A program made the position numbers and the translations under genes. From the NCBI GenBank assembly GCA_035716005.1, contig DASTKG010000052.1, forward strand, positions 6,360-70,359: a stretch of DNA of 64,000 nt. The letters run 5' to 3'. Positions 32,020 to 64,000 of this stretch are shown piece by piece. The notes under the pieces are model-generated. The model saw nothing but the letters and a program-made list of their open reading frames with translations. It made no database searches and was not told where the DNA came from. The number at the start of each line of letters is the position of its first letter. Positions within the stretch are counted from its first letter, which is position 1. The stretch is from Candidatus Eiseniibacteriota bacterium. Lineage in GTDB: Bacteria; Eisenbacteria; RBG-16-71-46; SZUA-252.

Positions 32020-32023
32020 TCCC

Positions 32024-32121: not shown

Positions 32122-32652
32122 ATGCGCAGCGCGCCACGGATGGTTAGCCTGGCCACAGCGGGGTTGCTCGCCGCCCTCCTGGTGGCCGTCGGATGTGCCT
32201 CACGCAAGCAGGTCAGCACCGCCCAGGTCGAGCCGCCTCCTCCGGCCACGACGACGCCGCAGGAAACGACTCCGCCGCCTCCGCCCCCGCCGGCCCAGAC
32301 GGAAGACGATTCGGCCACGCGGATGGCGATGACGGACGCCTTCTTCGACTTCGACGAGGCGGCCCTTCGCGACGACGCGAAGGCCGCGCTCACGAACAAC
32401 GCGAAGTGGATGGAGAAGAACGCCTCCGCGAACGTGATCATCGAGGGCCACTGCGACGAGCGGGGCTCGGTCGAGTACAACCTGGCGCTCGGCGAGCGGC
32501 GCGCGAAGGCGGCGAAGGAATATCTCGTCTCCTACGGCATCGCCGCGGGCCGCATGACGACGATTTCGTACGGCAAGGAGCGGCCGTTCGACCCGGGGCA
32601 CGACGAGAACGCCTGGGCGCAGAATCGCCGCGCGCACTTCATCTCGAAATGA
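32122..32652 (+). CDS. pal: Peptidoglycan-associated lipoprotein Pal (OmpA-family)
   Basis: Lipobox LLVAVGC. Pro/Thr-rich linker. OmpA-like domain ([23 protein letters not shown]). Start is chosen at ATG 32122; the ORF extends to 32107. Confidence 0.88.
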
Positions 32653-36816: not shown

Positions 36817-38157
36817 ATGAAGTCGCTGCATGGCCTTTTGGCGGGCGCCCTCCTGCTTGTGGCGGTCGCCGGCTGTTCCGAGGATTCGAAAACCGTCAAG
36901 GGCACGGGGTCGTACGCCCCGATCATCACCGGCCTCAAGAACGCGACCGGCGAGCCCGCGATTCGCGGCATTCCGAACGATCTCCAAGTCATCGTCACGA
37001 ACGTCAACGCCCTTCCGCTGACGGTCCACTGGGCCGCCACGGCGGGAGTCTTCTCCGACTCCACCACGCTCGACGCCGTCTGGACGCCCCCCGACACGGT
37101 CGGCACGTACAGCATCACCGTCTCCGTGGAGGCGAGCGACGCGACGCAGTACTTCTTCAAGACGACGACCTTCAGCGTCTACGTCGACAATCTCTACGAG
37201 CGCTGGACCAAGACCGACGCCATTCAGTTCGATCCGGCTCCCACCACGAGCGGCGCTCTCGTCTACGCGGAAATCCGCAACAACGTGACGGGCGAAGGCG
37301 ACGTCTATCGAGTCAGCTCGCCGATGGGCGGGGCCGAACAGATCTCCACCAGCTTCTACCGGGTGTCGTCGCCGACGCCCCGCGGGGACGAGCAGCAGAT
37401 CGCCTTCGCCGGCCGGCGCCGCTCCAGCGATTCCACGTCGATCTGGCTCGTTCCGTGGTCGGGCGCCGACACGCTCGGCGCGACGAAGCTGAGCCAGGCG
37501 AACACGCAGTTCCAGCGATTCCTCGCGCATCCGAGATTCGCCTGGAACGGCGGCTTCCTCATGTACGCCAGCGATTCGAATCTCGTCGGCTTCCCGAAGC
37601 TCTGGTACCGCGACGTCATCAACCCGGCCGCGCCGGTTCCCTTCATGAGCGTCGCCAACAACTCGAATCTCGTCCTCGACTCGTACCTGCCGGCGAATTG
37701 GGGCCCGGGCGGGTCGAACGTGGCGGCGCCCGAGTCGGTCGTCACGCAATCGTTCGAACTGTTCAACAACGTGGGGCAGACCGCGCGGGGCGCGTTCAAG
37801 TTCAAGACGCTCCTCTTCGGGCAGACGCCGCCGACCAGCGATCAGGCCTGGATCGCGGACACGACGTTCGCGGAGCCCGACTGGTCCTCCGACGGCAAGT
37901 ACATCGTCTTCTCGAGACGCGACCCGGCGGCGAGCGATCGCGACATCTGGATCGTCGCGACCAACGCCACGAGTCTCGCCGAAGCCAAACAGGTCACTCG
38001 GGGCCCCGCGGACGATTTCCACCCGCGGTTCTCGAAGGACGGAAACACCATCTACTTCGTCTCGAATCGCCAGGATCGCTACGGGCTGAACGGCCTCTTC
38101 CTCACGGAGAGGCGCGGCACCAACCTCTGGAGCGTCCGCCGATTCGATTTACCGTAG
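36817..38157 (+). CDS. Lipoprotein with Ig-like and PD40/TolB-like beta-propeller repeats
   Basis: Lipobox LVAVAGC. PD40-like motifs (WSSDGKYIVFSRRD, FSKDGNTIYFVSNRQD). RBS is AAAGGAG. Confidence 0.7.
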   Translation: MKSLHGLLAGALLLVAVAGCSEDSKTVKGTGSYAPIITGLKNATGEPAIRGIPNDLQVIVTNVNALPLTVHWAATAGVFSDSTTLDAVWTPPDTVGTYSITVSVEASDATQYFFKTTTFSVYVDNLYERWTKTDAIQFDPAPTTSGALVYAEIRNNVTGEGDVYRVSSPMGGAEQISTSFYRVSSPTPRGDEQQIAFAGRRRSSDSTSIWLVPWSGADTLGATKLSQANTQFQRFLAHPRFAWNGGFLMYASDSNLVGFPKLWYRDVINPAAPVPFMSVANNSNLVLDSYLPANWGPGGSNVAAPESVVTQSFELFNNVGQTARGAFKFKTLLFGQTPPTSDQAWIADTTFAEPDWSSDGKYIVFSRRDPAASDRDIWIVATNATSLAEAKQVTRGPADDFHPRFSKDGNTIYFVSNRQDRYGLNGLFLTERRGTNLWSVRRFDLP

Positions 38158-50040: not shown

Positions 50041-52156
50041 GCGCCTCCTGCTCGAGATCGGCTGCGAGGAGCTGCCGGCGTCGTTCGTCGGGCCGGCCCT
50101 CGAGGAGCTGGAAGCGCTGGCGCGGGCGGGGCTCGCGGAAGCCCGTCTCTCGTTCGGAGCCGTTCGCGTCCTCGGCACGCCGCGCCGTCTGGCGCTTCTC
50201 GTCGAGGGGCTCGCCGAGCGCCAGGAGGACCGGACGCGGGAAGTGCTCGGCCCGGCCGTCCGCGTGGCCTACGACGCGAAGGGCGCTCCCACGAACGCCG
50301 CGGCGGGCTTCGCGAAGGGGGCCGGGGTTCCGGTGGAGTCGCTCGAGCGGGCCACGACGCCGAAGGGGGAGTACCTCATGGCGCGCGTGCACGACGTGGG
50401 GGAACCGTCGGCCAAGGTCCTGCCCGCGCTCCTCGTCTCCTGGATCACGGGAATTCACTTTCCGAAGACGATGCACTGGAACGCCACCGGGCGCTTCGCG
50501 CGTCCTGTCCGCTGGCTCGTCTCGCTCCTCGACGGGGATCTCCTCCCGCTGGAGTGTTTCGGAGTCGCCGCCGGCACCCGGTCGAGAGGGCACCGGACGC
50601 TCGCCCCGGGATGGGTCGAGATCGGGCGCCCCGAGCGCTACGTCGACGCTCTCCGCGACGCGGGGGTCGTCGTCGATCCCGCCGAGCGGCGACGCCGGAT
50701 CGAGGAGGAGCTGGCGAGCGCCGTGGTGCCGATCGGCGGGCGCGCGGTGGAGGACGCCGAGCTCCTCGACGAGGTGACGCAGCTCGTCGAGTGGCCCGAA
50801 GCGGTGGTCGGCTCGTTCGACTCGAAATACCTCCAGCTCCCGCGGCCGGTCGTCGTGACCGCCATGCGCGCCCATCAGCGCTACTTCGCCGTGGAGCGCC
50901 CCGACGGCTCGCTCCTCGGGAATTTCGTCATGATCCGGAGCGGCCGCGGCGACGGGGCCGACCAGGTGCGCCGCGGAACGCAGGCCGTCCTTCGAGCGCG
51001 GCTCGAGGACGCCCGGTTCTACTGGGAGAACGATCTGAAGGGCGGGCTCGAATCGAAGCTGGAGACACTCAAGGGAATCGTCTGGCACGAGAAGCTCGGG
51101 TCGATCTACGACCGCACGCAGCGTCTCGGATTTCTCGTCGACGACCTGGCCCGATCGCTCGCGCCGAACGCCCGCGCCGCCGCCTCCCGCGCCGCGCGGC
51201 TCTGCAAGGCCGATCTCGCGACCGAGATGGTCCGCTCGGGCAAGGAGTTCGCCACGCTCCAGGGGATCGTGGGCGCCGAGTACGCGGCGGCGACCGGCGA
51301 GCCCGAGGGCGTGGTCCGGGCGATTCGCGAGCACTACCTCCCGCAGGGGCCTTCCGACCCGCTTCCCGCGACCGTGGAGGGGACGCTCCTGAGTCTGGCC
51401 GATCGGATCGAGGCGATCGTCGGCGGGCTCAGGGCCGGCCTCGAGGTGACGGGCTCGCAGGACCCGTACGGGCTTCGCCGCGCGGGGAACGGGGTCGTGC
51501 GGATTCTCCTCGAGAAGCAGCTCCGTCTCGACGTGCTGGAAGTCGCGTCCCGACTCTCGGCGTACTTTGAGAAGTCGGGCGTCCCGGTCGACCCCAAGGC
51601 GGGCGACCTGGTCGCCTTCTGGGCCCAGCGGCTCGAGAGCGCGCTGGAGGAGCAGGGGGTGACCCACGACACGGCGGCGGCGGTTCTGGCCGTCCGTCCC
51701 GGGGATCCGCTCGACGTCCTGGCGCGGGCCCGCGCGATCGACGAGATCCGCCGGAGCGAGGACTTCGAGGGCCTCATGGTCGGCTACCGGCGGGCCGCGA
51801 ATCTCCTCCGCACGGCCAAACCGGGCGACATTTCCGGCTCGGGGTCGCCGCTGGCCGAGCGCGCCGAGAATTTCGGGGAGAAAGTGGAGGCCGATCTCCA
51901 CCTCGAGACGAAGATGGCGAGGCAAGCGGTGGAGACGCTCCTCCAGGGCGACGCGCCCGATTATCCCAAGGCGCTTCGGATCCTCCTCGGCCTCCGACCG
52001 CCGATTGACGGATTCTTCGACGGGGTGATGGTTATGGTAGACGACACCGTCGCTCGTCGGCGTCGCCTCGGACTCCTCGAAGAGGTCCGGCAGACGTTTC
52101 TACGAATAGCGGACTTCTCCGCCCTCCCGGCGGGCGCAGGTCAAAAAGCTACTTGA
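50033..52156 (+). CDS. glyS: Glycine--tRNA ligase beta subunit
   Basis: GlyS N-terminus ([12 protein letters not shown]). 707 aa. GTG overlaps the glyQ stop. Confidence 0.93.
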
Positions 52157-52181
52157 CACTAGCCGGTTTCTGACCTATACT
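52153..52181 (+). promoter_or_regulatory. Perfect-consensus sigma70 promoter TTGACA-N17-TATACT with upstream A5 tract
   Basis: -35 is at 52153..52158 and overlaps the glyS stop codon. -10 is at 52176..52181. An AAAAA tract lies 5 nt upstream of the -35. GC content drops sharply downstream. Confidence 0.65.
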
Positions 52182-52187
52182 GGGCGG

Positions 52188-52627
52188 GTAAAGGAGATAG
52201 AATAATCTGTCTCCAGACAGCCGCAACCGCTAGAACCGATTGATATTACAGCGAATGCACGACACCCGATGGGCTGACGGTGCGGCTCGCTTTGTCTTTG
52301 GGGTTACTCGCGTTCGGCGCGTTTTCGCTTATTCGAGAGATTGATGGTAAGGGGGTGAGAGGACAGAGCGCTCTCTGGCTACCACTCGATTTTTGAAGAA
52401 GTTATGGAATGTGGATCGATTCGACGAAATTCAAAAGAGAGAAAGGAGGTCGGTAGGATTTCTCGTGAAGGGTAAGTCCATCAGCGCTCGAACTGTCCCG
52501 AACGAGCGGACGAACCCGACGCAGCACTCCAGACTCAACTAGAATTACCGAATCCCGTGTCGTGAAGTTCCAGTTAGTCCTCCCGATCTAGGGCTCCGAG
52601 TCAGGAAACACTAAGGAGGATGTGACA
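52188..52627 (+). other. Long (~440 nt) low-GC 5' leader / possible small RNA upstream of the 1248-aa gene
   Basis: Lies between the consensus promoter and the AAGGAGGA RBS. It begins with an 8-bp stem-loop at 52194..52215 (GGAGAUAG-aauaau-CUGUCUCC). A short CGCG-uucgg-CGCG hairpin followed by UUUU sits at 52311..52327. There is no convincing ORF. Confidence 0.4.
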
Positions 52628-55600
52628 ATGCGGAAAACCTTGTTCGCCTTGCTGGGTCTCGTGGCGATCGGATCGTGGGCCGTCCCGGCCCTCGCCGGTG
52701 TCGCTTTCAACGACCCGCCCAAGGCGTTCGCGCCGATTCCGCTCGAGAATCGTGCGGGCGCTATCGGAGCAATGGCAAAGAGCGGCACCAATTACCAGGC
52801 CACGCTGAGCGGCACGCTCATCAAGCAGGCGTCGGCCACCACCTCGTGGTTCCTCTATCCGGGCGCTTGCACCGACCGTGCGAACAACACGTGGGTGCCT
52901 CGTACCGCGGTCCAGGCCGACTCGCTCAACTCGTACCTCGTCGGTTCGCAGGGCGGATACGGGCGTGCGGATCAGTCGCTTTCCGAGAAGCTGTTCCATA
53001 TCGTTAGCTCGGGCCTGCCGGTCGGCCAGAAGCCGAACGGCATCAACGGCACGAACGCGATCTGGGCCGGAAAGTACGACGCGAACTGGGTGAACCCGGT
53101 CGGCTATCCGAACCTCACGAACCAGATCCTTTACATCGATCTCGAGTCGAACCGGGCGCCGATCGCGGCGAACACCGGTACGTACACGATCACGATGAAG
53201 CTGAACAGCTCCACCGAGCAGAATTACGACTTCCTGTACTTCATCGGTGGCGGCGATGCCGACGCGAACAACTTCGGCGACGAAGATCCGCTCGGCAACG
53301 ACCGCGGCGGCTTCGACCAGGTTCGCTCGACCGGATCGTTCGACGCTGCCACGCTTCAGGCCACGCTCACCGGCTCCATCATCGCCACGACCTCGGGTCT
53401 CCTGCCGTTCATCAATGGCTCGGCGGGTCCGACGATCGTGGGCGAGGGCGGTTCGCAGCCGGCGACGGTCAACCTGAACTTCCACATGACGACGGACAAC
53501 CGTGCGTTCTACATCCTCTTCACCGCCGACTGTCTCTTCTCGAGCGAAGACGGCCTCTGGCCCTTCGGCACGGGCGTGACGATCGACGACCTCACGGTGT
53601 TCGACGGCAGCGTGACCCGTAACCTCTACGTCGACCAGACGGCTGCCGGCGGCTCGGACACGGTGGGTGGCGACATCCTCGTGGCCGATCCGATCACGGC
53701 GACCGAGACGGACGGCGTGCGCATCTCGGCCCGCGTGTTCCCCGGCAAGGGCGAGCTCTGGGCCATCCAGCAGGGCAGCAGCTACACCACGTCCGACATC
53801 TGCCAGACGCAGAAGAACGCCACCACGGACCGCTTCTTCCTGGGCGTCGACCCCGTGACCAAGAACGCGCTTCCCGGCCAGTTCAACTCGGTCGTGACGT
53901 GCACGTTCGCGGTGCCGGCCGGCACGGCCGACATCACGGCGCTCTGGGGCGAGTACCTGAACCTGCCGCGTACCACGGGCTACGTTCAGTACTCGGAGTA
54001 CCGCTACTTCAAGGACGGCTCCTGGTCCAACTGGGAGAATACGGCTGCCGGCGGCGGTGTCCGCACGTCGGTGATCGACCAGTGGGTGGTTGACGGCGAT
54101 CCGCTCGCCTCGGCCGTCCAGGCCGATTCGTTCCAGGTCCGCTACAACATTCAGTGCATCACGGCGTTCGCCGCTGACCGCACGAATTGCGACAACAACA
54201 CGCAGTACGCCGTGCTCTACGACGACCTGTTCCTGCAGGTCACGACGGGCGTTCCGGCGCCGGTGTTCGGTATCTTCCCGGGTTCGGTGGCGCAGTCGAC
54301 CTTCGTCGACGGCAACATGACCGGCTTGAACTGCACCGTCACGCCGTGCTGGCCTGGCATCCGTGGTTCGGACCTCCAGACCAACCCGAACGTCGACATC
54401 GCTCGTAGCGCGGTGAAGGACAATCTCAACTCGCCGCTCGGCGACTCGCTCACGATGTCCTTCGTGACCGGTCTCCGCAAGAACGGCATGGGCATCAACT
54501 GGCACTACGGTTACGACAAGTCTGTGAACGGCGGTCTCACCGTCGCGATCACGAACGGCGCGTACAACCCGGCGTTCGATACGCCTCGGGTGATCTACCG
54601 CCTGTTCGACCCGGCCTCGAAGACCTGGAGCCCGTGGGACTCGACGTCCCTCAACGGCAACAACGTCTCCGTCGCGGGCGACACGGTCGTCATCGACTCC
54701 GAGTACCGCTTGAACTGGCCGCCGGCCGACAAGGTTGGTCTCAACCTGCCGGGCGGATTCACGATCAACGGTCAGGGCGCCTACAACAACCTGGCGTTCC
54801 TCCCGCGCGGTACGCGGATGCAGTACTACTTCAAGGCGGTCGACATCAACGGCGGCGTCAGCTACCAGTTCACGACCGATGCGCTCTCGCGCGAGGTCGA
54901 GGACCTGCCGACGCTTCCGGGCAGCGCGAACATCGCTGCTGACATCGTCGAGTTCGACGTTCTCCCGCGCGTTTATCCGGCGGGCACGGCGGGGACGCTT
55001 GCGGCGGGTCGCACCGACACGCCGGTCCTGAATCTCGACGGCGCCTACTGTGGTTGGGGCTTCGGCCAGGATCCCGTCACCGCGGCTCTCCGCGGCATGG
55101 GCGTCCGCGCCGACCGGTACCGTCCTCTCGCGGCGATCGACGAGGGTCATCTCCTCGGCGGGCACGAACTCGCCCCCGATCGTCCGTCGCGTCAGAGCAA
55201 TTACTTCCCGAATAAGGATGAGTACGGGATCAAGGATTCGCTCGCGACGTGGTACCGCATCATGATCCAGAATTCGCACACCAGCACGGTCCCGTCGATC
55301 GACGAGTCCGCGGCTCAGCTCGTTTCCGACTGGGCGGCCACGGATACCGGCGCTAACGGCGGCGATCGCTGCATCTTCTTCTCGGGCGATGACGCCTTCA
55401 ACTCGCTGACCAACTCTCCGGTCGGCGTCCCCGGCGCCCGCAAGCTCGCGCTCTCGACGGCCGTCTTCGGCGTCGCGAACGTGGTGACGCTGGCTCCGAG
55501 CGCGGCGAAGGGCTCCTGGGCGGGTACGACCGGCAATGCGTATCCGACCATCGATGACCGCTTCGCGGCTCAGGCTTCCGGTCCTGGTCTCGCGGCCCCC

Positions 55601-56374
55601 GGTTCGTTCACCTACGAAGTCGACGGTGGATGCCCCGGTCCGAACCGCTTCGATCCTCTCACCCCGACGGGCGGTGCGGTTGCTGCGGCGACCTTCCCGG
55701 TCGCGGCGGGCGTGACGGACGTCGCGGGTGTGGCCAAGGCGAGCGAGCTCGACAACACGCCCGACCTCGACCAGACCAAGGCCCTCAGCTACGGTTACTC
55801 GATCCAGTTCGTGCGTGGCACCGCGGGCGTGATTCCGCGCAACGCGGCCAACTACGTGCGTTCGGGCGTCCAGAACCGCATGCAGATTCTCTACAAGTTC
55901 CTGACGGGTTGCCGCGGCGCTCGTGGTGCTGGCTCGCTCTGCTGGCCGTGCCCGACGGATGCCAACCTGATCAGCAACTGGCTCACGGCGCCGGGCTTCA
56001 ACACGGCGACCTACGGCCCGCTCTATCCGATTCAGGACTTCACGAAGGCGACGGGTGTCGAGGTCGAGGAAGCGTCCGCGGCTCCGCGGGTCAACCGCAT
56101 CTTCGGCAACAGCCCGAACCCCTTCAACCCGATGACCAAGATCTCGTTCAGTGCCGCGCAGGCGGGCAAGGTCACGATCCGTATCTTCAACGTGGCCGGC
56201 CAGCTCGTTCGCACCCTCGAGACCAAGGTTGAGACGCCCGGAACCGCGAGCGTCTACTGGGATGGCATGTCGGATCGCAACGTCAAGTCGGGCAGCGGCG
56301 TGTACTTCTACAAGGCCACGTTCGCCAACGGCACCACGTTGACGGCCGATCGCAGCATGGTGCTCGTGAAGTAA
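52628..56374 (+). CDS. Large secreted protein of unknown function with a T9SS-type (Por_Secre_tail-like) C-terminal sorting domain
   Basis: Signal peptide (LFALLGLVAIGSWAVPALAG). About 1150 aa with no recognised catalytic motif. The final ~85 aa match the T9SS C-terminal-domain pattern (NSPNPFNPMTKISFS..GKVTIRIFNVAGQLVRTL.....SGVYFYKA....MVLVK). The strong RBS AAGGAGGA lies 7 nt before the ATG. Confidence 0.8.
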   Translation: MRKTLFALLGLVAIGSWAVPALAGVAFNDPPKAFAPIPLENRAGAIGAMAKSGTNYQATLSGTLIKQASATTSWFLYPGACTDRANNTWVPRTAVQADSLNSYLVGSQGGYGRADQSLSEKLFHIVSSGLPVGQKPNGINGTNAIWAGKYDANWVNPVGYPNLTNQILYIDLESNRAPIAANTGTYTITMKLNSSTEQNYDFLYFIGGGDADANNFGDEDPLGNDRGGFDQVRSTGSFDAATLQATLTGSIIATTSGLLPFINGSAGPTIVGEGGSQPATVNLNFHMTTDNRAFYILFTADCLFSSEDGLWPFGTGVTIDDLTVFDGSVTRNLYVDQTAAGGSDTVGGDILVADPITATETDGVRISARVFPGKGELWAIQQGSSYTTSDICQTQKNATTDRFFLGVDPVTKNALPGQFNSVVTCTFAVPAGTADITALWGEYLNLPRTTGYVQYSEYRYFKDGSWSNWENTAAGGGVRTSVIDQWVVDGDPLASAVQADSFQVRYNIQCITAFAADRTNCDNNTQYAVLYDDLFLQVTTGVPAPVFGIFPGSVAQSTFVDGNMTGLNCTVTPCWPGIRGSDLQTNPNVDIARSAVKDNLNSPLGDSLTMSFVTGLRKNGMGINWHYGYDKSVNGGLTVAITNGAYNPAFDTPRVIYRLFDPASKTWSPWDSTSLNGNNVSVAGDTVVIDSEYRLNWPPADKVGLNLPGGFTINGQGAYNNLAFLPRGTRMQYYFKAVDINGGVSYQFTTDALSREVEDLPTLPGSANIAADIVEFDVLPRVYPAGTAGTLAAGRTDTPVLNLDGAYCGWGFGQDPVTAALRGMGVRADRYRPLAAIDEGHLLGGHELAPDRPSRQSNYFPNKDEYGIKDSLATWYRIMIQNSHTSTVPSIDESAAQLVSDWAATDTGANGGDRCIFFSGDDAFNSLTNSPVGVPGARKLALSTAVFGVANVVTLAPSAAKGSWAGTTGNAYPTIDDRFAAQASGPGLAAPGSFTYEVDGGCPGPNRFDPLTPTGGAVAAATFPVAAGVTDVAGVAKASELDNTPDLDQTKALSYGYSIQFVRGTAGVIPRNAANYVRSGVQNRMQILYKFLTGCRGARGAGSLCWPCPTDANLISNWLTAPGFNTATYGPLYPIQDFTKATGVEVEEASAAPRVNRIFGNSPNPFNPMTKISFSAAQAGKVTIRIFNVAGQLVRTLETKVETPGTASVYWDGMSDRNVKSGSGVYFYKATFANGTTLTADRSMVLVK

Positions 56375-56396
56375 GCGAGTTCCAGCAGCAGCGGAA

Positions 56397-56431
56397 GGGC
56401 CGCCAGGTTCGCCTGGCGGCCCTTTTCGTTT
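56397..56431 (+). terminator. Rho-independent terminator
   Basis: GGGCCGCCAGG-uucg-CCUGGCGGCCC followed by UUUUCGUUU, 23 nt after the stop codon. Confidence 0.8.
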
Positions 56432-56557
56432 GCCCCCGGTGGGCCTGAATGGCACACTTGGCGGCGCCGGGGCCGCGCCGCCTGGATCGCCCCATGCCCC
56501 GCCCCTCGAACCGGCCCGATCGGCTGAACTGGGCCTTCCGGACCAGGTAAAATCGGT

Positions 56558-56586
56558 TTGACTCGTCCGGAGAGGATTGGTAGCTT
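56558..56586 (+). promoter_or_regulatory. Candidate sigma70 promoter TTGACT-N17-TAGCTT with upstream A-tract
   Basis: AAAATcggtTTGACT...TAGCTT lies 70 bp before the lipoprotein start. Its architecture matches the other island promoters. Confidence 0.45.
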
Positions 56587-56655
56587 AGGGGAGTCCCCCA
56601 AGACGATCACTCGAATGACCTGCCGGTGAACAACCCAGTCTCCTCGGAGAGCTAA

Positions 56656-58212
56656 ATGCCCCAGCGCGTTGCGTGGCGCACCGCCGCCCGTCCCGTTGTG
56701 ATCCTTGTCGGGCTCGCCGCATTGCTGGCGGCCTGCGCCAAAGAACCAGTCGCCGTCGATCGGAATCGCCCTCCGCGCACCTATCTCGTGTCGGCGCCGC
56801 CGGAGAGCGGTTCGTTCTCCTATCGCATTCATCTCTACTGGCGCGGCGAGGATCCGGACGGCTACGTGGTCGGATACCAGTGGGCGTGGGACGATTCGAG
56901 CATCAACGCGTTCCACTTCACCACGAAGACGGACACGATCTTCGAGCTCGCCGTGAACGACTCGGCCACCATCACCGGCGGCAACACCAACCAGCCGCCA
57001 GGGACGTCGAAGGGCCATACGTTCTTCATCCGCGCGGTGGACAATCTCGGCAAGCCCGATCCGAACCTGGCCGTATTCAACAGGCGCATCATCATCTCCA
57101 CGACGGTGAAGCCCACGGTGGCGTTCAAGCCCCCGCTCCCGGGCCCGGGGCCCGGCGTCGACTCGCTCTGCGACGGGCAGCCCTTCGAAGTATGCTGGGG
57201 CGGTAGCGATCCGGACGGGAGCATTCTCGGATACAAGTTCGACGTCGGCTCCTACAGCAGCCCGATCGTCCGGGATTCCTGCGTCAGCTTCAACGACGCG
57301 AACAATCCGAACTCCATCGCGCTGGCGAGCGGCCTCTACACGCTGACGGTCCAGTCGGTCGACAACGCCTACGCGCTGAGCGATCCCGGCGCGAGCAAGT
57401 TCCTCTTCGTCGTCAACCGCGATCCCGTCACCTGGTTCAAGGACGCGTCGGGCGGACGGGGCATCCCGGTCGGCTACTACATCGCGCCGTATCTCCGCGG
57501 GCAGCTCGTGCCGCCGACGATCAGGCAGTTCGCCCCCGGCGACACGGTTCCGTATCGGTCCACCGTCTGGTGGCAGTGGGACGGGGAGGACAATGCGTGC
57601 GACAGCCCGAGCGGCATCAACGCGTTTTCGCTCTCCGGGCAGGTCTATCACAACGGCAACGTGCCCTACATCATCGGCTTCCTGCCCGAAATCGCGCCCG
57701 GGATTCCGTTCAAGACGAACGATCCGGTCGTGCTGGGGCAGAACAATTTCTCCAACCTGATCCTCGACTCCCTCGACGCGGGGAACGGCATTCTCATGCG
57801 AGTCCGCGCGCGGGACCTCTCGAACCGCATCTCGGGGCTCCAGTACTCCGGGGAGTTCACGTTCAACTGCAACTTCCCGCCCAAGCTGAAGAACTTCCGA
57901 GTCTGCGACGCCTGCTCGCTCGGACAGAAGTGGAAGCGCTTCGAGTGGGACGCCGAGGATGAGGAGGACGGATTCCCGGCCGAGGCCACGCTCTACCTGG
58001 AGAACGGCCTCGACACGAGGACGGTTCTCGGCCCGAATTTCTTCTACATCCCCGAACGAGTGTTCCGGGACTTCTCCCCGACGAATCCGCACGTCGCCGA
58101 GGTGCGGGTCAAGGATCGCGCCGGCTATGCGTCCGCGGAACGCCTGAAAGTGACGTTCAACGTCGATTACGTAGACACATTGTGCAATTTCCCCAACGCA
58201 CCTTGTCCCTAG
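56656..58212 (+). CDS. Lipoprotein with repeated W-x-G-x-D-P-D-G Ig-like modules (paralog A)
   Basis: Lipobox LLAACA. At least four repeats are present (HLYWRGEDPDGYVVGYQW; EVCWGGSDPDGSILGYKF; VWWQWDGEDNACDSPSG; FEWDAEDEEDGF). Y_Y_Y-like motifs appear as well (LYTLTVQSVDN, LFVVNRDPVTWF). Confidence 0.75.
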   Translation: MPQRVAWRTAARPVVILVGLAALLAACAKEPVAVDRNRPPRTYLVSAPPESGSFSYRIHLYWRGEDPDGYVVGYQWAWDDSSINAFHFTTKTDTIFELAVNDSATITGGNTNQPPGTSKGHTFFIRAVDNLGKPDPNLAVFNRRIIISTTVKPTVAFKPPLPGPGPGVDSLCDGQPFEVCWGGSDPDGSILGYKFDVGSYSSPIVRDSCVSFNDANNPNSIALASGLYTLTVQSVDNAYALSDPGASKFLFVVNRDPVTWFKDASGGRGIPVGYYIAPYLRGQLVPPTIRQFAPGDTVPYRSTVWWQWDGEDNACDSPSGINAFSLSGQVYHNGNVPYIIGFLPEIAPGIPFKTNDPVVLGQNNFSNLILDSLDAGNGILMRVRARDLSNRISGLQYSGEFTFNCNFPPKLKNFRVCDACSLGQKWKRFEWDAEDEEDGFPAEATLYLENGLDTRTVLGPNFFYIPERVFRDFSPTNPHVAEVRVKDRAGYASAERLKVTFNVDYVDTLCNFPNAPCP

Positions 58213-58248
58213 TGCGACCACGCCGAGGATAGAGGAGTAAACGATTCG

Positions 58249-60528
58249 ATGATCCGGAACATCCTGAAGCTGGTCCCAGTCCTGCTCTTCGCGGCCGTCG
58301 CGGCTCTCTTCGCGGGTTGCTCGAAGGACAATACCGCGGGCCCGACTCCGGTGAAGCAGAACCCGGAGACCGAGCTGACGTACGCGCCGCTGCAGGGAGA
58401 CACCGCGGGGTATCGCGTCCGCCTCTATTGGAACGGCTACGATCGCGACGGAGAGGTGGTTCGGTTCCGCTACGCGATCGACTCCGACACGCTGGAGCCC
58501 GATCCCACGAAGTGGAAATCGACCACCGCCAAGGACACGACGCTGCTCCTTCTCGTCGACCCGGTGAAGGAGATCCGTGGGCACGTCTTCTGGGTCTCCG
58601 CGGAGGACAACGAGGGCCGGATCGATCCGACGCCCGCGAAGCGGTTCTTCTCCACGAAGACGATTCCGCCGACCTCGGAGATCCTCCGGGGACCGTCGGC
58701 GTTCAACGCGATCATCGGCCCGAACTTCACGTATGAATGGGAGGGGATCGATCCCGACGGCGGCGAGACGGGCGGCCGCGCTCCCTGCGATTCGTTCGAA
58801 TACCTGTTGCTTCTGATCGGGGCCGTGAACGATCCGAACACGCCGCCGACGCATCCGCCTCTCCCCCAGTTCAATCAGACGTTCTACGTCAATCTGATCA
58901 ACGCGAGCGTGAACGACACGCTCGTGGCGCCTCACGGAGACTGGCGCTGGACCGGAATCCGGGGAACCCGCCTGCGGGTCCGGAACGCGAGCCCCGGCGA
59001 GTACGTCTTCGCCCTGCGCGCGGTCGACCTGGCCGGCGCGCGTGAGAAGAACATCGCCTTCGTGCGGAACATCCGGCACTTCACGGTCACGAACCGGAAC
59101 CCCGGGCCGACGCTGACCATCGAGGCAAGCGTGCTGACGACGCCTCTGCCGACGGCGACGGGACCGGAGGATTTCCCGCGGCGCGAGATCCAGATCTTCG
59201 AAGGCGAGATCATCTCCTTCTCCTGGTCGGCGTCGGCCGACGCCTATGGCGGCAGCATCGTCGGGTTCACGTACGCTCTCGACGACACGGCGTCGTTCCC
59301 CGGCCTCGACGTCAGGAATATCGGCGTGACCTACCGGCCCCAGGATCTGGGCGTGGGCCTCCACTACCTTTTCGTGCGGGTCTTCGACGACGGCGGTCTG
59401 AGAACGAACGCCATCATCCCGTTCCGGATCGTTCATCCCACGTTCAAGGACCCGCCGGGTCCGTTGAACCCGCCGTCGTACCTCTACGTGGATGACGCCC
59501 TTTCTCCGGGCGTGAACAACAGGAATCGCTTCTTCAACTACCCGTCCGACGCCGAAGAGGACGAGTGGATGCGGATCAACGTCCTGACACCCATTTCTCT
59601 GGCCACCGGCGTCGGCAAGTCCGACTGGGACACGTTCGGCAAAGGCGACGAGGGCGGGGGAGGATCCCGAATTCAGCCCCTCCCGGCCGATCTGGCGCCC
59701 TACCGCGTCGTGATCTGGAGCGTCGACCACAACAACCAGGTCGGGAATCCGACGGCGCTCTGGCTGACCCTGGTCGGCGGGGCCTACAGCGATCTGGGCG
59801 GATACCTGCGCGCGGGCGGAACCCTGGTTCTCTACGGCTTCTCGGTCGCCAGCAGCATCGTACAGCCGACCACGGCTCTGACGGCGAACTTCTCACGAGG
59901 AATCTGCTTCGCGTTCCCGGCGAACACCCTCGGCTACAACCAGACGTTCTTCCCCCGGTCGATGATGGGGATCGACGGCGCCAGAGCCGCCGACGAAGGG
60001 TTGCGGAGGCAGGGCGCGAAGGACTTCCTGGAGGCGCGGGTGACCCCGCAGGGCGCCGCCCTCGGATATCAGACGGCGGTCGTCGACACGGGCGCGGGCA
60101 ACAAGTGGGACGGCAAGCTCGTGGCCGGAGATCCCGAGTCGTCCTGGGCTCCGGGCCTCCCGCGTATCGAAGGCTGGAAGATGGCCTCGCTCTTCAACTG
60201 CGAGCCGAGCCAAGGGCTCCTTCGCAAGGAGGACGCGAGCAGGCCGATCTCGACGCCTCTCTACACGTACCACGGGGCCCCGATCGGGATCTACATGACG
60301 GGGGCTCAGTCGCCGCGCGAGAACCTGATCGTCGGCGTCCAGGTGCAGGCGCACGACGTCGGCGGCTTCGGTGGCGGGACGGTCACACAGGGTTCCCTGG
60401 GCGTCATCGGACGCGTCGTGGTGCTCGGGTTCCCGATGTACTTCCTGAAGGATGCCCAGGCGACGTCGATCATGCTGACCGCCTTCAACTACGTGAACGG
60501 GTCGCCGACGCTGCCCCTGATGCCATAG
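58249..60528 (+). CDS. Lipoprotein with W-x-G-x-D-x-D-G modules (paralog B, 759 aa)
   Basis: Lipobox LFAGCS. The N-terminal repeats are homologous to the upstream gene (YRVRLYWNGYDRDGEVVRFRY; FTYEWEGIDPDGG). The C-terminal half is unique. The RBS GAGGAG 36 bp after the upstream stop suggests co-transcription. Confidence 0.75.
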   Translation: MIRNILKLVPVLLFAAVAALFAGCSKDNTAGPTPVKQNPETELTYAPLQGDTAGYRVRLYWNGYDRDGEVVRFRYAIDSDTLEPDPTKWKSTTAKDTTLLLLVDPVKEIRGHVFWVSAEDNEGRIDPTPAKRFFSTKTIPPTSEILRGPSAFNAIIGPNFTYEWEGIDPDGGETGGRAPCDSFEYLLLLIGAVNDPNTPPTHPPLPQFNQTFYVNLINASVNDTLVAPHGDWRWTGIRGTRLRVRNASPGEYVFALRAVDLAGAREKNIAFVRNIRHFTVTNRNPGPTLTIEASVLTTPLPTATGPEDFPRREIQIFEGEIISFSWSASADAYGGSIVGFTYALDDTASFPGLDVRNIGVTYRPQDLGVGLHYLFVRVFDDGGLRTNAIIPFRIVHPTFKDPPGPLNPPSYLYVDDALSPGVNNRNRFFNYPSDAEEDEWMRINVLTPISLATGVGKSDWDTFGKGDEGGGGSRIQPLPADLAPYRVVIWSVDHNNQVGNPTALWLTLVGGAYSDLGGYLRAGGTLVLYGFSVASSIVQPTTALTANFSRGICFAFPANTLGYNQTFFPRSMMGIDGARAADEGLRRQGAKDFLEARVTPQGAALGYQTAVVDTGAGNKWDGKLVAGDPESSWAPGLPRIEGWKMASLFNCEPSQGLLRKEDASRPISTPLYTYHGAPIGIYMTGAQSPRENLIVGVQVQAHDVGGFGGGTVTQGSLGVIGRVVVLGFPMYFLKDAQATSIMLTAFNYVNGSPTLPLMP

Positions 60529-60561
60529 GCCGCTCGGCCGCCTTCCCGCGGCACGCGACGG

Positions 60562-60602
60562 GGCCGCGTTCACCTCACCGGTGGACGCGGCCTCTCGCTT
60601 TT
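60562..60602 (+). terminator. Rho-independent terminator candidate
   Basis: GGCCGCG...CGCGGCC stem with an inner CACCGGTG palindrome, followed by UCUCGCUUUUCGG. Confidence 0.5.
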
Positions 60603-60739
60603 CGGACACGACGGCTCGGACTCGGGCGATCGACGGCAACTCCTGTTCCCGAGGCGCGACGAGCATCTCTCCCGTCGGTTGAATTTCAGTTCGCGGTTTC
60701 TCCGCCCGTCCTTGATTCTTCCGGCCAGTCGCTCTTCGG

Positions 60740-61115
60740 ATGCACGTCTGGGCGACGGACTCTCAGGACGCGAAGCGGACGCACGAGGGCGTGGTCCGGG
60801 CGTTCGAGCACTTCGGCGGCGTGGTGCGCGAAGTGCCGGTGGACAACCAGAAGTGCGCGCCGCTCGATGATCGTCCCGGGAACGGCCGCGGTTCAACGAG
60901 CGGTTCCTCGACCTCGGCCACCACTACGCTACGTGATGCGGAACTTCTTCGTTCGCTACCGCGAGTTCGAGAGCTACGCCCACCTGAATCAGCTCCTCGA
61001 GCGGTGGTTGAGAGAGGAGGCCGATCCCCGGATCCACGGCACCGTGCGGGAAGTGGTGGCGGCGCGGTTTCTCCGGGAGGCGCCGACGCTCACGCCGCCC
61101 CCTGGAGACCTATGA
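60740..61115 (+). pseudogene. istA: istA (IS21 transposase) C-terminal fragment, multiple frameshifts and internal deletion
   Basis: See the mobile-element entry. The segments are in frames 1, 0 and 2 in turn, with an in-frame stop after HHYAT. Confidence 0.7.
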
Positions 61116-61127
61116 GGAGGTGGCGAC

Positions 61128-61632
61128 GTGGAATTGACCACCTTCCTCGAACGGATGAAGCGGGAGCATCCGGCCGCGCGGATCGACAGCGTCTGCGAGC
61201 AGGCCGCGGGACAGGACCTCGACTACAAGAGGTTCCTCGCCCAGGCCCTGGTGACGGAATGCCAGGGCCGATTCCGTCGGGGGATCGAGGCCCGCGGGAA
61301 GCTGGCGCGGTTCCCCTGGATCAAGGCCCCTCGACCAGTTCGACTTCGACTTCCAGCCGAGCCTCGATCGGAAGATCGTGCGCGAGCTCGCCTGGCTCTC
61401 CGTCGTCGAGCGGGCGCACAACGTGGTGCTCCTCGGCCCGCCGGGCGTCGGCAAGACGGACCTGGCCATCTCGCTGGGGATGAACGCGGTCGAGGCAGGC
61501 TACTCTGTCCTGTTCCTCACCCTGGAGCAATTGATGACCCGGCTCACGCGGGCTCGGCAGGAGAACCGGCTCGAGCGCGCGCTTCAGCAGCATGTGTATC
61601 CCAGAGTGCCGATCCTCGACGAGCTCGGCTAG
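61128..61632 (+). pseudogene. istB: istB (IS21 helper ATPase) fragment, frameshift near 61325 and truncation after ILDELG
   Basis: Walker A GPPGVGKT is in a different frame from the N-terminal MELTTFLERMK segment. The C-terminal ~80 aa are missing. Confidence 0.7.
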
Positions 61633-61779
61633 GGCTAGAGCTGCCGGCTGAAGGAGAAACGCCGGGCCGGCCTTCTCGGCCAAATCCCCCAGCGCCAGCC
61701 CGAGGAGGTTGCCACGGCGGGACGATCGCATCGGCGATCAGGGGACAAAATCGTCGGCGATCGGGGGTGTGACGCGGTG

Positions 61780-61821
61780 GCCGACAAGGAAACGGCCGCG
61801 GAGCCGAGGCCCCGCGGCCGT
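61780..61821 (-). terminator. Rho-independent terminator for the minus-strand PD40/T9SS-CTD gene
   Basis: On the minus strand: ACGGCCGCGG-loop-CCGCGGCCGU followed by UUUCCUUGUCGG, 29 nt after the stop. Confidence 0.55.
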
Positions 61822-61849
61822 TCGTGCTTCTGTTACGAGTGGCTCTGGC

Positions 61850-63706
61850 TTACTTCGCCATCACCATCTTGACGACGTCGGACGTGATCTCGCTGCCCTT
61901 GCCGTCGCCGACCGAAGCCTTCGCGAAGTAGATACCCGAAGCAGCCTTCGCGCCGGTGCTGGTCGAACCATCCCACGCAGCCTCGTGCGAACCGGTCCCG
62001 TAGTTGCCGCTGGCGACGGTCTTCACGAGCTCGCCGCGCACGTTGTAGACGCGGACGTTCACGAAGCCGGGCTTGGCGACCGAGAAGCGGATCTTGGTCA
62101 CGGGGTTGAAGGGATTCGGCGAGTTCTGCTCGAGACGAACCACCTGGCCGGCCGCGTTGTTGGACGAGAGCTTGAGGTAGCCGTAGCCCTGGAACTGGCG
62201 GCCGCGGGTGCTCGAGTAAGCGGTAACCGGGCAGATGACGGTCTGATTGACGAGACCGAGAGCGACAAGGCGAGCCTCGACCGTCTTACGGTTGAGCTGC
62301 ATGATCGTCTCGTATTCCCCGCCGTTGACCTGGTTCGTCATCGCGGCGAACGGCGCACCGTTCACGGCCGAGGTCGGTCCAGGCTGGCCGAGGAAGGTCG
62401 GGCTGATGATGATCGAGTTGCGGTTCTTGATGCCCTCGTGTCCGGCCGGAATGCCGATGAAGCCCTTGTCGTCGACGTCGGCGACGGCCACGAATCCGGC
62501 GGCCTGCGTCTCGGCGGGCATGCTGATCGTCACGTTGAGATTCCCGCCATTGCTGCCCAAGTTGAGGGTCGTCGGGCTGATCGCGACGCCGAGCGGGAGA
62601 GCCGGGAAGCAGTTGTTCGCGCTGGCACGCCAGATGCCGAGACCGAAGTTGGCGCCCTGGCTGGAGCAGAGGAACAGGTTGTACGGGTTGCCGTCGAGGT
62701 TGAAGTTCGTCAGGGACGAGACATCCGGATCGGCGTCGCCGCGATTGTCGAAGAAGATGTCGCACTTCGACTGCGTCGCGAGGTCGAGCTTGAAGATGTC
62801 GGTGTTGTTGTTGATGTCCTCGCCCTGCGGAGCGTCATAGAAGATCGACGCGCCGTCGGACGACCACGACGGGTTGTTGTGCGAAATCGAGGCGAAATTC
62901 GTCTCGGCGAGGTAGAACGTGCCCGGAGCGTTGAGGTCGGCGATCTCGATCACGTTGCGGCCGAACTTGTTGGTCGCGTACGCGATCAGATTGTTGGGAC
63001 CCCACGTCGGGTTGATTTCCGACCGGGCGTCGTTCGTGGTGGCGCGCGCCGGGACGCCGACCGTGGCGGTCGGAACGTCGACCGAGACGTACCAGATGTC
63101 GGTCGAAGGACCCGCCGCGTTCGACGCGTAGCAGAGCGCCGTGCCGTCCGGCTTCCAATCGGGGGTGCGATTGATGACGCCGGGGGCGGCCGGGACGACG
63201 AGCAGGGGCGAACCGACCGGGGTCGTCGCGGCGAGCGTGGTCGTTCCGGTCATGTACTCCTGGACGTAGATCGCCGACTGCGTGATCTGGCCGTCCGTCT
63301 GCACGTACGCGAGGTACTTGCCGTTCGGGCTCCACGCCGGATCCGTGTAGGAGACCATGGCGGCGGGATCAAGGAGCATCGGACGACGAGCGTCCATAAT
63401 GTCGGCCACCGAGAAGCCGATCTGAGCGGCATTCTGGCCGAGCCAGATCGAACGAACGGTTTCGCTGCCGACCACGGTGCTGCGGGTGGAGAACGAGTAC
63501 CAGCGCTCGGTCTGCGCATGGCCGCCGTTCGCCCGGATATTGGCGTTGCGGAGCGACGGCTGCTCGCAGCCGTTCGCGAGGCCTGTGTTGAACGGTGCAC
63601 CATTCGTGAGGGGATCCCAGACCCCACGAAGGGCCGCACTCGCATGTACCGGCACGAGCGCGAAGAAGAGCGCCAGCAGCACGGTCACACCTAGCAGTTT
63701 CTTCAT
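61850..63706 (-). CDS. Secreted PD40/TolB-like beta-propeller protein with T9SS-type C-terminal sorting domain
   Basis: Signal peptide (MKKLLGVTVLLALFFALVPVHASA). PD40-like repeats (YTDPAWSPNGKYLAYV; NRTPDWKPDGTALCYASN; EINPTWGPNNLIAYATN; HNNPSWSSDGASIFYDA). The C-terminal ~90 aa match the T9SS C-terminal-domain pattern (NSPNPFNPVTKIRFSV..PGFVNVRVYNVRGELVKTV....SGIYFAKA....MVMAK). Confidence 0.85.
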   Translation of the reverse strand: MKKLLGVTVLLALFFALVPVHASAALRGVWDPLTNGAPFNTGLANGCEQPSLRNANIRANGGHAQTERWYSFSTRSTVVGSETVRSIWLGQNAAQIGFSVADIMDARRPMLLDPAAMVSYTDPAWSPNGKYLAYVQTDGQITQSAIYVQEYMTGTTTLAATTPVGSPLLVVPAAPGVINRTPDWKPDGTALCYASNAAGPSTDIWYVSVDVPTATVGVPARATTNDARSEINPTWGPNNLIAYATNKFGRNVIEIADLNAPGTFYLAETNFASISHNNPSWSSDGASIFYDAPQGEDINNNTDIFKLDLATQSKCDIFFDNRGDADPDVSSLTNFNLDGNPYNLFLCSSQGANFGLGIWRASANNCFPALPLGVAISPTTLNLGSNGGNLNVTISMPAETQAAGFVAVADVDDKGFIGIPAGHEGIKNRNSIIISPTFLGQPGPTSAVNGAPFAAMTNQVNGGEYETIMQLNRKTVEARLVALGLVNQTVICPVTAYSSTRGRQFQGYGYLKLSSNNAAGQVVRLEQNSPNPFNPVTKIRFSVAKPGFVNVRVYNVRGELVKTVASGNYGTGSHEAAWDGSTSTGAKAASGIYFAKASVGDGKGSEITSDVVKMVMAK

Positions 63707-63844
63707 TCCTTCATCTCCTCTCTAACGCGGGTAAAATCGAGAAGACACCTCAAGAGGATAAGGTAGACGACAGTCTGAGCCCGATCACCTCCTTATTAAC
63801 TCAGCTTTCAGAGTGACTCTAAAGTGATGTAATTACAAGCAATC

Positions 63845-63860
63845 GGGAACACGTGTTCCC
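63845..63860. promoter_or_regulatory. Perfect 16-bp palindrome GGGAACACGTGTTCCC (candidate operator)
   Basis: Positioned at about +11..+26 relative to the predicted minus-strand transcription start, inside the 5' leader of the 61850..63706 gene. Confidence 0.5.
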
Positions 63861-63877
63861 GCTTTCACACTCCAAGT

Positions 63878-63907
63878 AGTATACGCGTCCGATCGATGAA
63901 GTGTCAA
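63878..63907 (-). promoter_or_regulatory. Consensus sigma70 promoter (minus strand) TTGACA-N18-TATACT with upstream A5 tract
   Basis: Reverse complement of 63902..63907 is TTGACA. Reverse complement of 63878..63883 is TATACT. TTTTT at 63912..63916 supplies the A-tract. The promoter sits ~170 nt upstream of the CDS start. Confidence 0.6.
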
Positions 63908-63951
63908 GCAGTTTTTGGAAATCGTGACCGCCCCTCCCACCCAAAAACGTC

Positions 63952-63980
63952 TTGACACTCCACCACTTGGAGCCTAGTCT
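63952..63980 (+). promoter_or_regulatory. Divergent sigma70-like promoter AAAAAcgtcTTGACA-N17-TAGTCT reading out of the window
   Basis: Back-to-back with the minus-strand promoter. It has the same A-tract/TTGACACT architecture as the promoters at 52153 and 63907. Confidence 0.45.
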
Positions 63981-64000
63981 GCGGCCAGGGTCAGGCTCCG

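Follow-up and report, generated by a model that had tools for sequence, protein, structure and literature searches.

A probable core cell-envelope locus of Candidatus Eisenbacteria downstream of glyS, with T9SS-type C-terminal domains and two conserved leaders

What is the 12-kb block that follows glyS (52.15-64.0 kb) in this window, by which we mean the whole 64,000-nucleotide stretch of DNA analysed here, from a genome of ~69% GC: an accessory, horizontally shaped island of surface-protein and secretion-cargo genes, as a first-pass annotation of the sequence had proposed, or a resident part of the chromosome shared with relatives? Our best explanation, to which we give a probability of about 0.65 as a whole, is that the block is a cell-envelope locus that belongs to the core genome of Candidatus Eisenbacteria, has been inherited vertically and is made up of three transcription units. 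Its most interesting content is a group of phylum-restricted secreted proteins with C-terminal domains (CTDs) of the T9SS (type IX secretion system) type, together with two unusually conserved, partly structured leaders, a feature that the earlier annotation had missed. Keeping those open reading frames (ORFs) in which the third codon position was the most GC-rich gave five features downstream of glyS, which ends at 52156:

52628-56374, + strand: BIG, a 1248-residue secreted protein, from an ORF supported by GC content at the third codon position (GC3) and from domain searches
56656-58212, + strand: lipoA, a 518-residue lipoprotein with PKD/Ig-like modules
58249-60528, + strand: lipoB, a 759-residue lipoprotein with N-terminal Ig/Fn3/PKD-like modules and a C-terminal ThuA/GATase1-like domain
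60740-61640 (approximate), + strand: a decayed IS21 relic spread over three reading frames
61850-63706, - strand: PD40ctd, a 618-residue secreted PD40 propeller, Tricorn/TolB-like, with a type-A CTD, from domain searches

The evidence that carries the core reading is the conservation of gene order. BIG, lipoB and PD40ctd were 100% identical to proteins encoded on a 91.6-kb contig of a Candidatus Eisenbacteria metagenome-assembled genome (MAG) at NCBI, and about 45 related loci were collected through the genomic contexts of the protein homologues and through DNA pattern scans of the BIG leader. One locus, L014, lies on the complete Eisenbacteria chromosome OY969801.1. A back-translated pattern of the BIG alignment, run against genome contigs, returned no relative and was swamped by the CTD motif PNPFNP. 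The order recO-glyQ-glyS-leader-BIG-lipoA-lipoB was kept in every one of the ~45 loci that was long enough, across identities of 42-87% for BIG and ~69-93% for glyS. In three genomes (L004, L049 and L050) the block extended to the convergent PD40ctd gene, whose product was 72%, 45% and 42% identical, respectively, and was followed by the same ~330-residue ORF, an aldehyde dehydrogenase (Aldedh) gene and an asparaginase II gene. The sole variable spot was the gap between lipoB and PD40ctd, which holds the IS21 relic here, an unrelated 273-residue ORF in L004, two ORFs in L049 and none in L050. Within the locus, only the IS21 relic is lineage-specific. The first-pass annotation had itself named identical synteny in relatives as the observation that would overturn an accessory island, and this is what was found.

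That annotation had also described a change of character after glyS, which is correct for bulk GC (a drop from ~0.69 to 0.64) and incorrect for synonymous sites, where the four genes match the window (GC3 of 0.87-0.88, versus 0.81-0.94 in the rest of it). Bulk GC falls because of codon positions 1 and 2, and thus amino-acid composition (first-position GC was 0.57-0.61 in the four genes versus ~0.70 in the rest of the window), and because of long, AT-richer leaders. Rfam searches identified no tRNA in the window, and Pfam searches identified no integrase in the 36 window ORFs that they covered (the 16.9-21.0 kb region and about eight GC3-supported ORFs were outside that scan). The hallmarks of a genomic island that were checked, namely variable presence among relatives, foreign synonymous-site composition and a flanking tRNA or integrase, were therefore not those of this block; direct repeats around the 12 kb lay outside the check, and the only trace of a mobile element was the internal IS21 relic. 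The lineage had been guessed to be FCB-like (Fibrobacteres-Chlorobi-Bacteroidetes) or Gemmatimonadota-like, which was close. It is Candidatus Eisenbacteria and not Gemmatimonadota, and NCBI taxonomy treats it as a candidate phylum that is not formally in the FCB group.

The frameshifted istA/istB fragment noted in the earlier annotation was borne out. Six-frame reading identified internal and C-terminal IstA fragments and the N-terminus of IstB with its Walker A motif in three reading frames; the copy lacks both of its ends and carries at least two frameshifts. The DNA was ~70% identical to istA/istB of the ISEc62 family over 60942-61631 and the IstA- and IstB-like frames were in the right order, as in the ISEc62 group of the IS21 family. 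The copy differs from that family in its truncation and frameshifts, in scores far under the NCBIfam cut-offs (27.3 bits for NF033546, cut-off 160, at model positions 151-190 only, and 20.4 bits for NF038214, cut-off 200) and in having no matching terminal inverted repeats in 60529-61850. Neither an intact istA, with helix-turn-helix and DDE regions, nor an intact istB, with its AAA+ domain, is present, and the relic is absent from this position in L004, L049 and L050. It is a dead, truncated, non-functional insertion between convergent terminators with no part in the locus. As a separate observation, the gap between those terminators (window 60605-61784, L004:17808-18945 and L049:12058-14287) looks like an insertion-tolerant site.

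The division of the block into transcription units rests on the following promoters and terminators:

52153-52181, + strand: BIG promoter, TTGACA-17 nt-TATACT, 11/12 consensus, its -35 element overlapping the glyS stop codon
56397-56432, + strand: BIG terminator, GGGCCGCCAGG-UUCG-CCUGGCGGCCC followed by UUUUCGUUUG, -37.5 kcal/mol, z = -3.96
56558-56586, + strand: lipoA-lipoB promoter-like site, TTGACT-17 nt-TAGCTT, read from the sequence and followed by a conserved leader of ~70 nt
60560-60604, + strand: lipoB terminator, a 15-bp stem with 11 G-C pairs, -41.8 kcal/mol, z = -5.3
61785-61823, - strand: PD40ctd terminator, inverted repeat I2 with 15-nt arms that are 93% complementary, -36.2 kcal/mol, z = -3.2, with a U-rich tail
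63907-63878, - strand: PD40ctd promoter, TTGACA-18 nt-TATACT, 11/12 consensus, invariant in the four genomes compared

The sequence TTGAC[A/T]-N17-TATACT was located upstream of BIG in 38/38 loci that extended far enough. Sites matching the sigma-70 consensus at 11 of 12 positions numbered two in the 12 kb, against 1.3 expected, and both lay directly upstream of BIG and PD40ctd. The weaker lipoA promoter (TTGAC[A/T], a 17-18-nt spacer and a -10 element of TAnnnT, mostly TAGnTT) was at the same place in 10/10 loci, over which the lipoA leader was conserved as well (GTCCCC..CCTGCCGG..), with TCTCCTCGGAGA near the Shine-Dalgarno (SD) sequence in 8/10. The BIG terminator was kept in 10 loci with compensatory changes in its stem (CCAGG/CCUGG versus CCGGG/CCCGG versus CUGGG/CCAGC). 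Since this terminator is strong, BIG is monocistronic, and the terminator taken together with the conserved lipoA promoter and leader makes BIG and lipoA-lipoB separate transcription units. The earlier claim that each unit has its own promoter and terminator was thus upheld, with two 11/12 promoters, a conserved weaker one before lipoA and three strong terminators.

Codon usage set two of the genes apart. The share of CGY among arginine codons was 0.88 in BIG and 0.91 in PD40ctd, and that of GGY among glycine codons was 0.91 and 0.86, respectively, with A-ending codons at only 1-2% in both. Other window genes were mostly at 0.5-0.7 for these measures (the highest were hsp20 at 0.79 for arginine and dnaK at 0.80 for glycine), lipoA and lipoB had no bias, and no other window gene, dnaK and clpB included, was as biased for both amino acids. 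Codon bias and promoter match together suggest that BIG and PD40ctd are very highly expressed.

The 1248-residue secreted protein with a T9SS-type CTD that had been predicted after glyS was found as described. BIG begins with a Sec signal peptide, MRKTLFALLGLVAIGSWAVPALA, cleaved before G (read from the sequence without a predictor), and continues with jelly-roll/MAM/CBM-like beta-sandwiches, a ThuA/GATase1-like alpha/beta domain at approximately residues 800-1095, and a CTD:

residues 1165-1248, nucleotides 56120-56371: type-A CTD of BIG

The AlphaFold model of BIG had a pLDDT of 83.8 and a pTM of 0.82. Once mature, BIG is an acidic protein (pI 4.8) with many G, A, T and S residues, few charged residues and 14 cysteines; ten cysteines are invariant in the family. 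Look-ups of the exact BIG sequence, in forms of 1250 and 1248 residues and as P0001, matched no existing record. A word-indexed protein search identified 150-250 or more full-length homologues for each protein family, including at least 158 for BIG (47-88% identical, all of ~1200-1290 residues), and the named homologues were nearly all from Eisenbacteria, with four carrying other MAG labels. An exhaustive phmmer scan of BIG against 1.84 billion cluster representatives returned only 79 relatives (clusters), all at least 34% identical, and we therefore regard the passenger region as restricted to Eisenbacteria. Outside its CTD, BIG had no Pfam match even at E<=10; the same was true of the passenger regions of lipoA and lipoB, and none of the three had an NCBIfam match. 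The BIG family was observed to be modular: some members exchange the first ~350 residues for another N-terminal region of 400-540 residues and in others the similarity is confined to the first jelly-roll (query residues 85-330), these modular members being P0241, P0243, P0248-P0250, P0253, P0254, P0281, P0284 and P0286. BIG paralogues that lack the leader were seen in other contexts, in L003 and as P0077/P0118 on one 457-kb contig.

The second CTD protein of the earlier annotation, a PD40 beta-propeller on the opposite strand, was likewise recovered. PD40ctd has a Sec signal peptide, MKKLLGVTVLLALFFALVPVHASA, cleaved before A (again read without a predictor), and at least 181 homologues that are 40-85% identical, with matches to PF26549, PF26550, PF07676 and PF13860. 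It shares with TolB/Tricorn-type propellers the PD40 repeats, matches to Tricorn_N and Tricorn_2nd, and partial matches to TolB models. Unlike the Tol-Pal TolB (30715-32019, beside pal), PD40ctd has a CTD and its own near-consensus promoter. Since a true tolB-pal pair lies upstream in the window (30715-32652), PD40ctd is an additional CTD-bearing propeller and not the TolB of Tol-Pal; a further PD40-repeat protein is encoded at 36817-38157.

Both CTDs scored above the cut-off of TIGR04183, Por_Secre_tail (26.3 bits for BIG over residues 1165-1239 of 1248, and 29.6 bits for PD40ctd over residues 530-603 of 618; cut-off 23), and above that of PF13860, FlgD_ig (36.9 and 40.8 bits, respectively; cut-off 27). 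Their best NCBIfam matches were the CTD regions of PorU, PorZ and T9SS-dependent proteases. Each is at the extreme C-terminus, starts with N-x-P-N-P-F-N-P, contains a G-[VI]-Y-F motif and ends in a hydrophobic-basic tail (...MVLVK and ...KMVMAK), features that we take to be typical of type-A CTDs. Cargo proteins with such CTDs include P. gingivalis RgpB and the T. forsythia S-layer proteins TfsA and TfsB. The two proteins resemble type-A cargo in having an N-terminal Sec signal peptide, a large passenger and an Ig-like domain of ~80 residues at the C-terminus that exceeds the TIGR04183 cut-off, and BIG resembles TfsA and TfsB in being ~1200 residues long, acidic and apparently highly expressed. 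In L003, an Eisenbacteria protein with a GSDH domain and a FlgD_ig CTD is encoded near the BIG paralogue (L003:16458-18149), which suggests that the phylum has many CTD-tagged proteins.

The lipoproteins proved to be tandem paralogues, as had been annotated. Their lipoboxes are LAAC (lipoA) and FAGC (lipoB), their first ~200 residues align by BLASTP (E=5e-17, 30% identity), and the W-x-G-x-D-P-D-G-type motif occurs three times in lipoA and twice in lipoB. We presume this motif to resemble the PKD signature WxFGDG. Residues 36-83 of lipoA matched the PKD domain of ColH (PDB 4jgu, E=1e-4 over 48 residues), the only significant match of these proteins to PDB sequences. The modules are thus comparable to PKD, bacterial Ig-like and Fn3-like modules such as those of ColH (4jgu) and CbhA (Fn3-like, 3pe9), and differ from known PKD domains in that no Pfam PKD model matched and in being longer and interrupted. 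The lipoA gene was syntenic in relatives, with products 47-91% identical, and lipoA itself had no Pfam or NCBIfam match. Two side observations concern lipoB: the same MAG has a second lipoB paralogue, P0148 (VFS09_03820), on another contig that is 69% identical to the lipoB of the window (VFS09_04210), and two tandem lipoB-like genes were present on several other contigs (P0224/P0236, P0223/P0225 and P0176/P0197).

The ThuA/GATase1-like domains of BIG and lipoB were assigned by fold similarity to solved ThuA-like structures. Relatives with this class-I glutamine-amidotransferase-like fold are PDB 4jqs, 1t0b, 3rht and 2gk3, and also the N-terminal domains of IFT52 and OST48; sequence identity was only 6-16%, there was no match to Pfam ThuA or GATase at E<=10, and here the fold is fused to secreted jelly-roll or Ig modules. 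A homologous ThuA-like domain common to BIG and lipoB was considered and rejected (nothing by BLASTP, hhalign probability 3%). The earlier statement that none of the four proteins carries a recognisable catalytic motif agreed with our Pfam, NCBIfam and PDB-sequence searches.

The leader of BIG occupies nearly the whole interval between glyS and the BIG start codon and contains several conserved elements:

52182-52627, + strand: BIG leader (5' untranslated region, UTR), 446 nt, with the transcription start inferred near 52188
52192-52215, + strand: P1, a 9-bp hairpin ~10 nt from the inferred 5' end, -15 kcal/mol, z = -4.0
52441-52449, + strand: start-less SD-like "decoy" GAAAGGAGG, 179 nt upstream of the ATG
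52462-52523, + strand: H3, a long stem-loop in three tiers whose tip, GCUCG/CGAGC, is invariant and whose C-rich loop, CUGUCCC, is conserved
52576-52586, + strand: anti-SD block AGUCCUCCCGA, which can pair over 7 bp with the true SD (GGAGGAU)
52612-52630, + strand: true ribosome-binding site UAAGGAGG and BIG ATG, read from the sequence and conserved in all loci

There were 33 distinct homologous leaders, and the length of the spacer between glyS and BIG was conserved (423-450 nt between the -10 hexamer and the ATG). In its degree of conservation the BIG leader matches glyS coding DNA: mean pairwise identity was 0.711 over 28 leaders, and the corresponding values for coding DNA were 0.723 in the 3'-terminal 450 nt of glyS and 0.661 in the 5'-terminal 450 nt of BIG. 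Rfam had no match for it at the gathering threshold, and at E<=10 there was one chance match to a lncRNA (E=4.6). The idea that it contains a small ORF was also considered and rejected, as frame, start and length differ among homologues and an indel in L001 disrupts the one frame that recurs.

Compensatory base pairs, the mark of a structured cis-regulatory RNA, were found for P1 and H3 only. In P1, 96.7% of cells in the alignment were paired, versus 35-52% with the partners slid, there were compensatory changes in 6/9 pairs, and 0/500 shuffles reached the observed score. H3 folded alone into the same architecture in 33/33 homologues; 82% of its cells were paired, versus 26-44% when slid, two-sided changes occurred in 9/16 pairs, and again 0/500 shuffles reached the score. 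With a covariance model of H3 (R1), each locus gave exactly one copy (40 hits, E 9e-17 to 5.5e-8); a second copy, sought in the rest of the window and in the paralogue locus L003, was not found. The decoy, which was outside both search patterns, was invariant or showed G/A wobble in 31/31 aligned leaders, and it was followed by no conserved start codon and no conserved ORF. RNAalifold predicted the pairing of SD and anti-SD in 31/31 sequences; the two elements formed part of one search pattern and were also intact in loci obtained with the independent 5' pattern. Two other helices were discarded: the P2 stem (AGCCGCA/UGCGGCU) of the full-length RNAalifold prediction, which was either invariant or broken without compensation in the clade of L022, L030 and L037, and a UCGGUA/UACCGA helix disrupted by uncompensated changes. 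Approximately 100 nt into the leader, at 52270-52299 (+ strand), there is a terminator-like hairpin with a U-rich tail in most genomes, not including that clade, which may be an attenuator.

The leader of PD40ctd repeats this design on a smaller scale:

63707-63877, - strand: PD40ctd leader, ~165 nt
63861-63844, - strand: 5' hairpin
63795-63783, - strand: start-less UAAGGAGGUGAUC
63760-63748, - strand: CCUC-rich block, followed by the true SD, GAGAGGAG

The PD40ctd promoter and leader regions compared were window 63707-63907 (- strand), L004:20803-21030, L049:9760-10000 and L050:9760-10000. The leader was ~95% identical to that of L004, as against 72% for the protein, and the 95 nt at its 3' end were nearly invariant even in genomes with proteins that are 42-45% identical. 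We take UAAGGAGGUGAUC to be complementary to the canonical 3' end of 16S rRNA, and the BIG decoy is presumably the same 9-mer as STAB-SD. A strong, start-less SD-like sequence, as in STAB-SD-type 5' UTRs, is therefore present and conserved in both leaders (52441-52449 and 63795-63783).

According to a review of bacterial mRNA decay, long-lived mRNAs such as that of cryIIIA are stabilised by an occluded 5' end or by a strong SD that lacks a start codon (PMC3997798, in which the STAB-SD of B. thuringiensis cryIIIA is attributed to Agaisse & Lereclus 1996). On the basis of that review, we interpret the two leaders as probably stabilising and high-output, with possible translational control. They are similar to STAB-SD and ompA-type leaders in that a strong start-less SD is far upstream of the real start in both and, as in ompA, a hairpin lies within ~10 nt of the inferred 5' end. 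In contrast to those systems, the BIG leader is much longer (446 nt) and belongs to a phylum unrelated to Firmicutes; it also contains an anti-SD block, numerous other invariant blocks and an additional three-tier hairpin that covaries and has a conserved loop.

Taken together, we propose that the locus works as follows. In the first unit, a near-consensus sigma-70-type promoter would drive a 446-nt structured leader and BIG up to its terminator; in the second, a weaker promoter would give lipoA-lipoB, again ending at a terminator; and in the third, on the opposite strand, a near-consensus promoter would be followed by the ~165-nt leader, PD40ctd and a terminator. BIG and PD40ctd would then rank with the cell's most strongly expressed genes, and their products would be exported by Sec and handed by their C-terminal Ig-like domains to a T9SS-like outer-membrane pathway for surface display or release. 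With its lectin-like jelly rolls and ThuA/GATase1-like domain, BIG could be a major glycan-binding or structural surface protein, a proposal that draws on fold, composition, export signals and apparent abundance, and promoter strength, codon bias, acidic pI and the long leader are indirect hints at an S-layer role. The two membrane-anchored Ig-repeat lipoproteins may act together with BIG. At the RNA level, the 5'-terminal hairpin and the strong start-less SD might dock ribosomes and protect the mRNA, as in STAB-SD or ompA leaders, and the anti-SD block ~30 nt upstream of the true SD could serve as a handle for translational control.

Several observations weigh against this explanation. BIG and the lipoproteins are in separate transcription units and have no detectable homology, and the estimate of expression draws on promoter match and codon bias in a window that contains no ribosomal-protein genes for reference. 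The SD/anti-SD pairing is invariant and so has no support from covariation, with a folding z-score of -0.67, and stabilisation by STAB-SD is documented in those Firmicutes that lack RNase E, members of a different phylum from Eisenbacteria. Regarding the secretion route, PF18962 (Por_Secre_tail) scored 22.6 bits for BIG and 19.3 bits for PD40ctd, below the gathering threshold of 27, such that the HMM check suggested in the first-pass annotation for both C-termini was borne out by TIGR04183 and PF13860 and not by PF18962. There were no T9SS core genes among the window ORFs scanned, a scan that covered the window only, our searches found no literature linking Eisenbacteria to T9SS or to secretion systems, and a 2024 review omits Eisenbacteria from its list of FCB phyla that possibly have T9SS. 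Compared with known type-A cargo, then, BIG has a passenger without sequence relatives outside Eisenbacteria, a sub-threshold PF18962 score and a host phylum in which a T9SS is not documented.

The low PF18962 scores, the absence of T9SS genes from the window ORFs scanned and the omission of Eisenbacteria from that review also fit a rival view, in which the CTDs are FlgD-type Ig-like modules of the usual sort, serving adhesion, contact with the cell wall or oligomerisation, and carry no T9SS signal, the proteins being periplasmic or exported by another route; the fact that PF13860 outscores the T9SS models fits such modules too. We nevertheless judge this unlikely, as both proteins exceed TIGR04183, the domain is at the extreme C-terminus of signal-peptide proteins complete with start motif, G-[VI]-Y-F and hydrophobic-basic tail, and the best NCBIfam matches are CTD regions of T9SS proteins. 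The island acquired horizontally with its secretion cargo and inserted after glyS has even less to commend it. The fall in bulk GC past glyS, the IS21 fragment and the lack of characterised homologues were reasons to propose it, and all three are outweighed by the shared order in ~45 loci (in three genomes through PD40ctd and the genes beyond), by GC3 at the genome background, by the lack of a tRNA in the window and of an integrase in the 36 ORFs covered by the Pfam scan, and by an IS21 relic that is missing in relatives and sits in the gap between terminators instead of at a boundary of the block; we consider such an island scarcely credible. As a point of method, a fall in GC beside an IS fragment can mimic an island and reflect instead the amino-acid composition of secreted proteins.

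Our proposal of a structural or adhesive surface role must also be set against the view that BIG and lipoB are extracellular enzymes that process a glycan or peptide polymer through their ThuA/GATase1-like domains. That fold is common to amidotransferases and to accessory domains of GH42 and GH164 glycosidases, PelA and Agd3, CBM-like jelly rolls usually accompany carbohydrate-active enzymes, and the domains contain conserved Cys, His, Asp and Glu residues; however, no catalytic family was identified by sequence even at E<=10 and a Cys-His-Glu triad could not be assigned, which leaves an enzymatic role doubtful. Also to be weighed is whether the BIG leader, which we read as a constitutive stabiliser, is in fact a regulator that responds to a ligand or a protein (a riboswitch or attenuator) or a small RNA in its own right. 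Its 446 nt and many invariant single-stranded blocks exceed what a stabiliser needs, the terminator-like element at 52270-52299 has a U-rich tail, and SD/anti-SD complementarity would suit an ON/OFF switch. Against this, there was no Rfam family match, covariation backed two hairpins only, the other predicted long-range helices being invariant or broken without compensation, and the U-tract is missing in the clade of L022, L030 and L037. We hold a regulator of this kind to be a tentative possibility, on the improbable side.

Eisenbacteria are an uncultured soil phylum whose physiology is little known, and because of their phylum-wide conservation, position beside glyQS, apparent very high expression and lack of sequence relatives outside the phylum, the proteins of this locus are the best candidates for its main surface or secreted proteins and could be targeted by metaproteomics, antibodies or cryo-electron tomography. 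The T9SS-type CTDs suggest that CTD-dependent export reaches a phylum not yet listed for T9SS, and the two long leaders, absent from Rfam, offer cases of expression control beyond the model phyla that can be put to the test. A bolder form of the proposal, which we put forward as a speculation with the odds well against it, is that the four proteins make up the main surface layer or apparatus of Eisenbacteria, exported through an undescribed T9SS, and that the leaders are a new, phylum-wide class of cis-acting RNA in which a perfect, start-less SD acting as a ribosome dock, a 5' hairpin, the three-tier hairpin and an anti-SD clamp would together set mRNA stability and translation for the secreted proteins that the cell makes in greatest abundance.

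Elsewhere in the window, ~4 kb at 16900-21000 stood out by its ~75% GC and by having no ORF with the GC3 > GC1 > GC2 pattern of all other window genes, as every long ORF there has the wrong codon-position profile. The other window genes scanned were housekeeping or regulatory genes or had no Pfam match, and they include dnaK, clpB, tolB-pal, genes of thr/lys biosynthesis, hisS and aspS.

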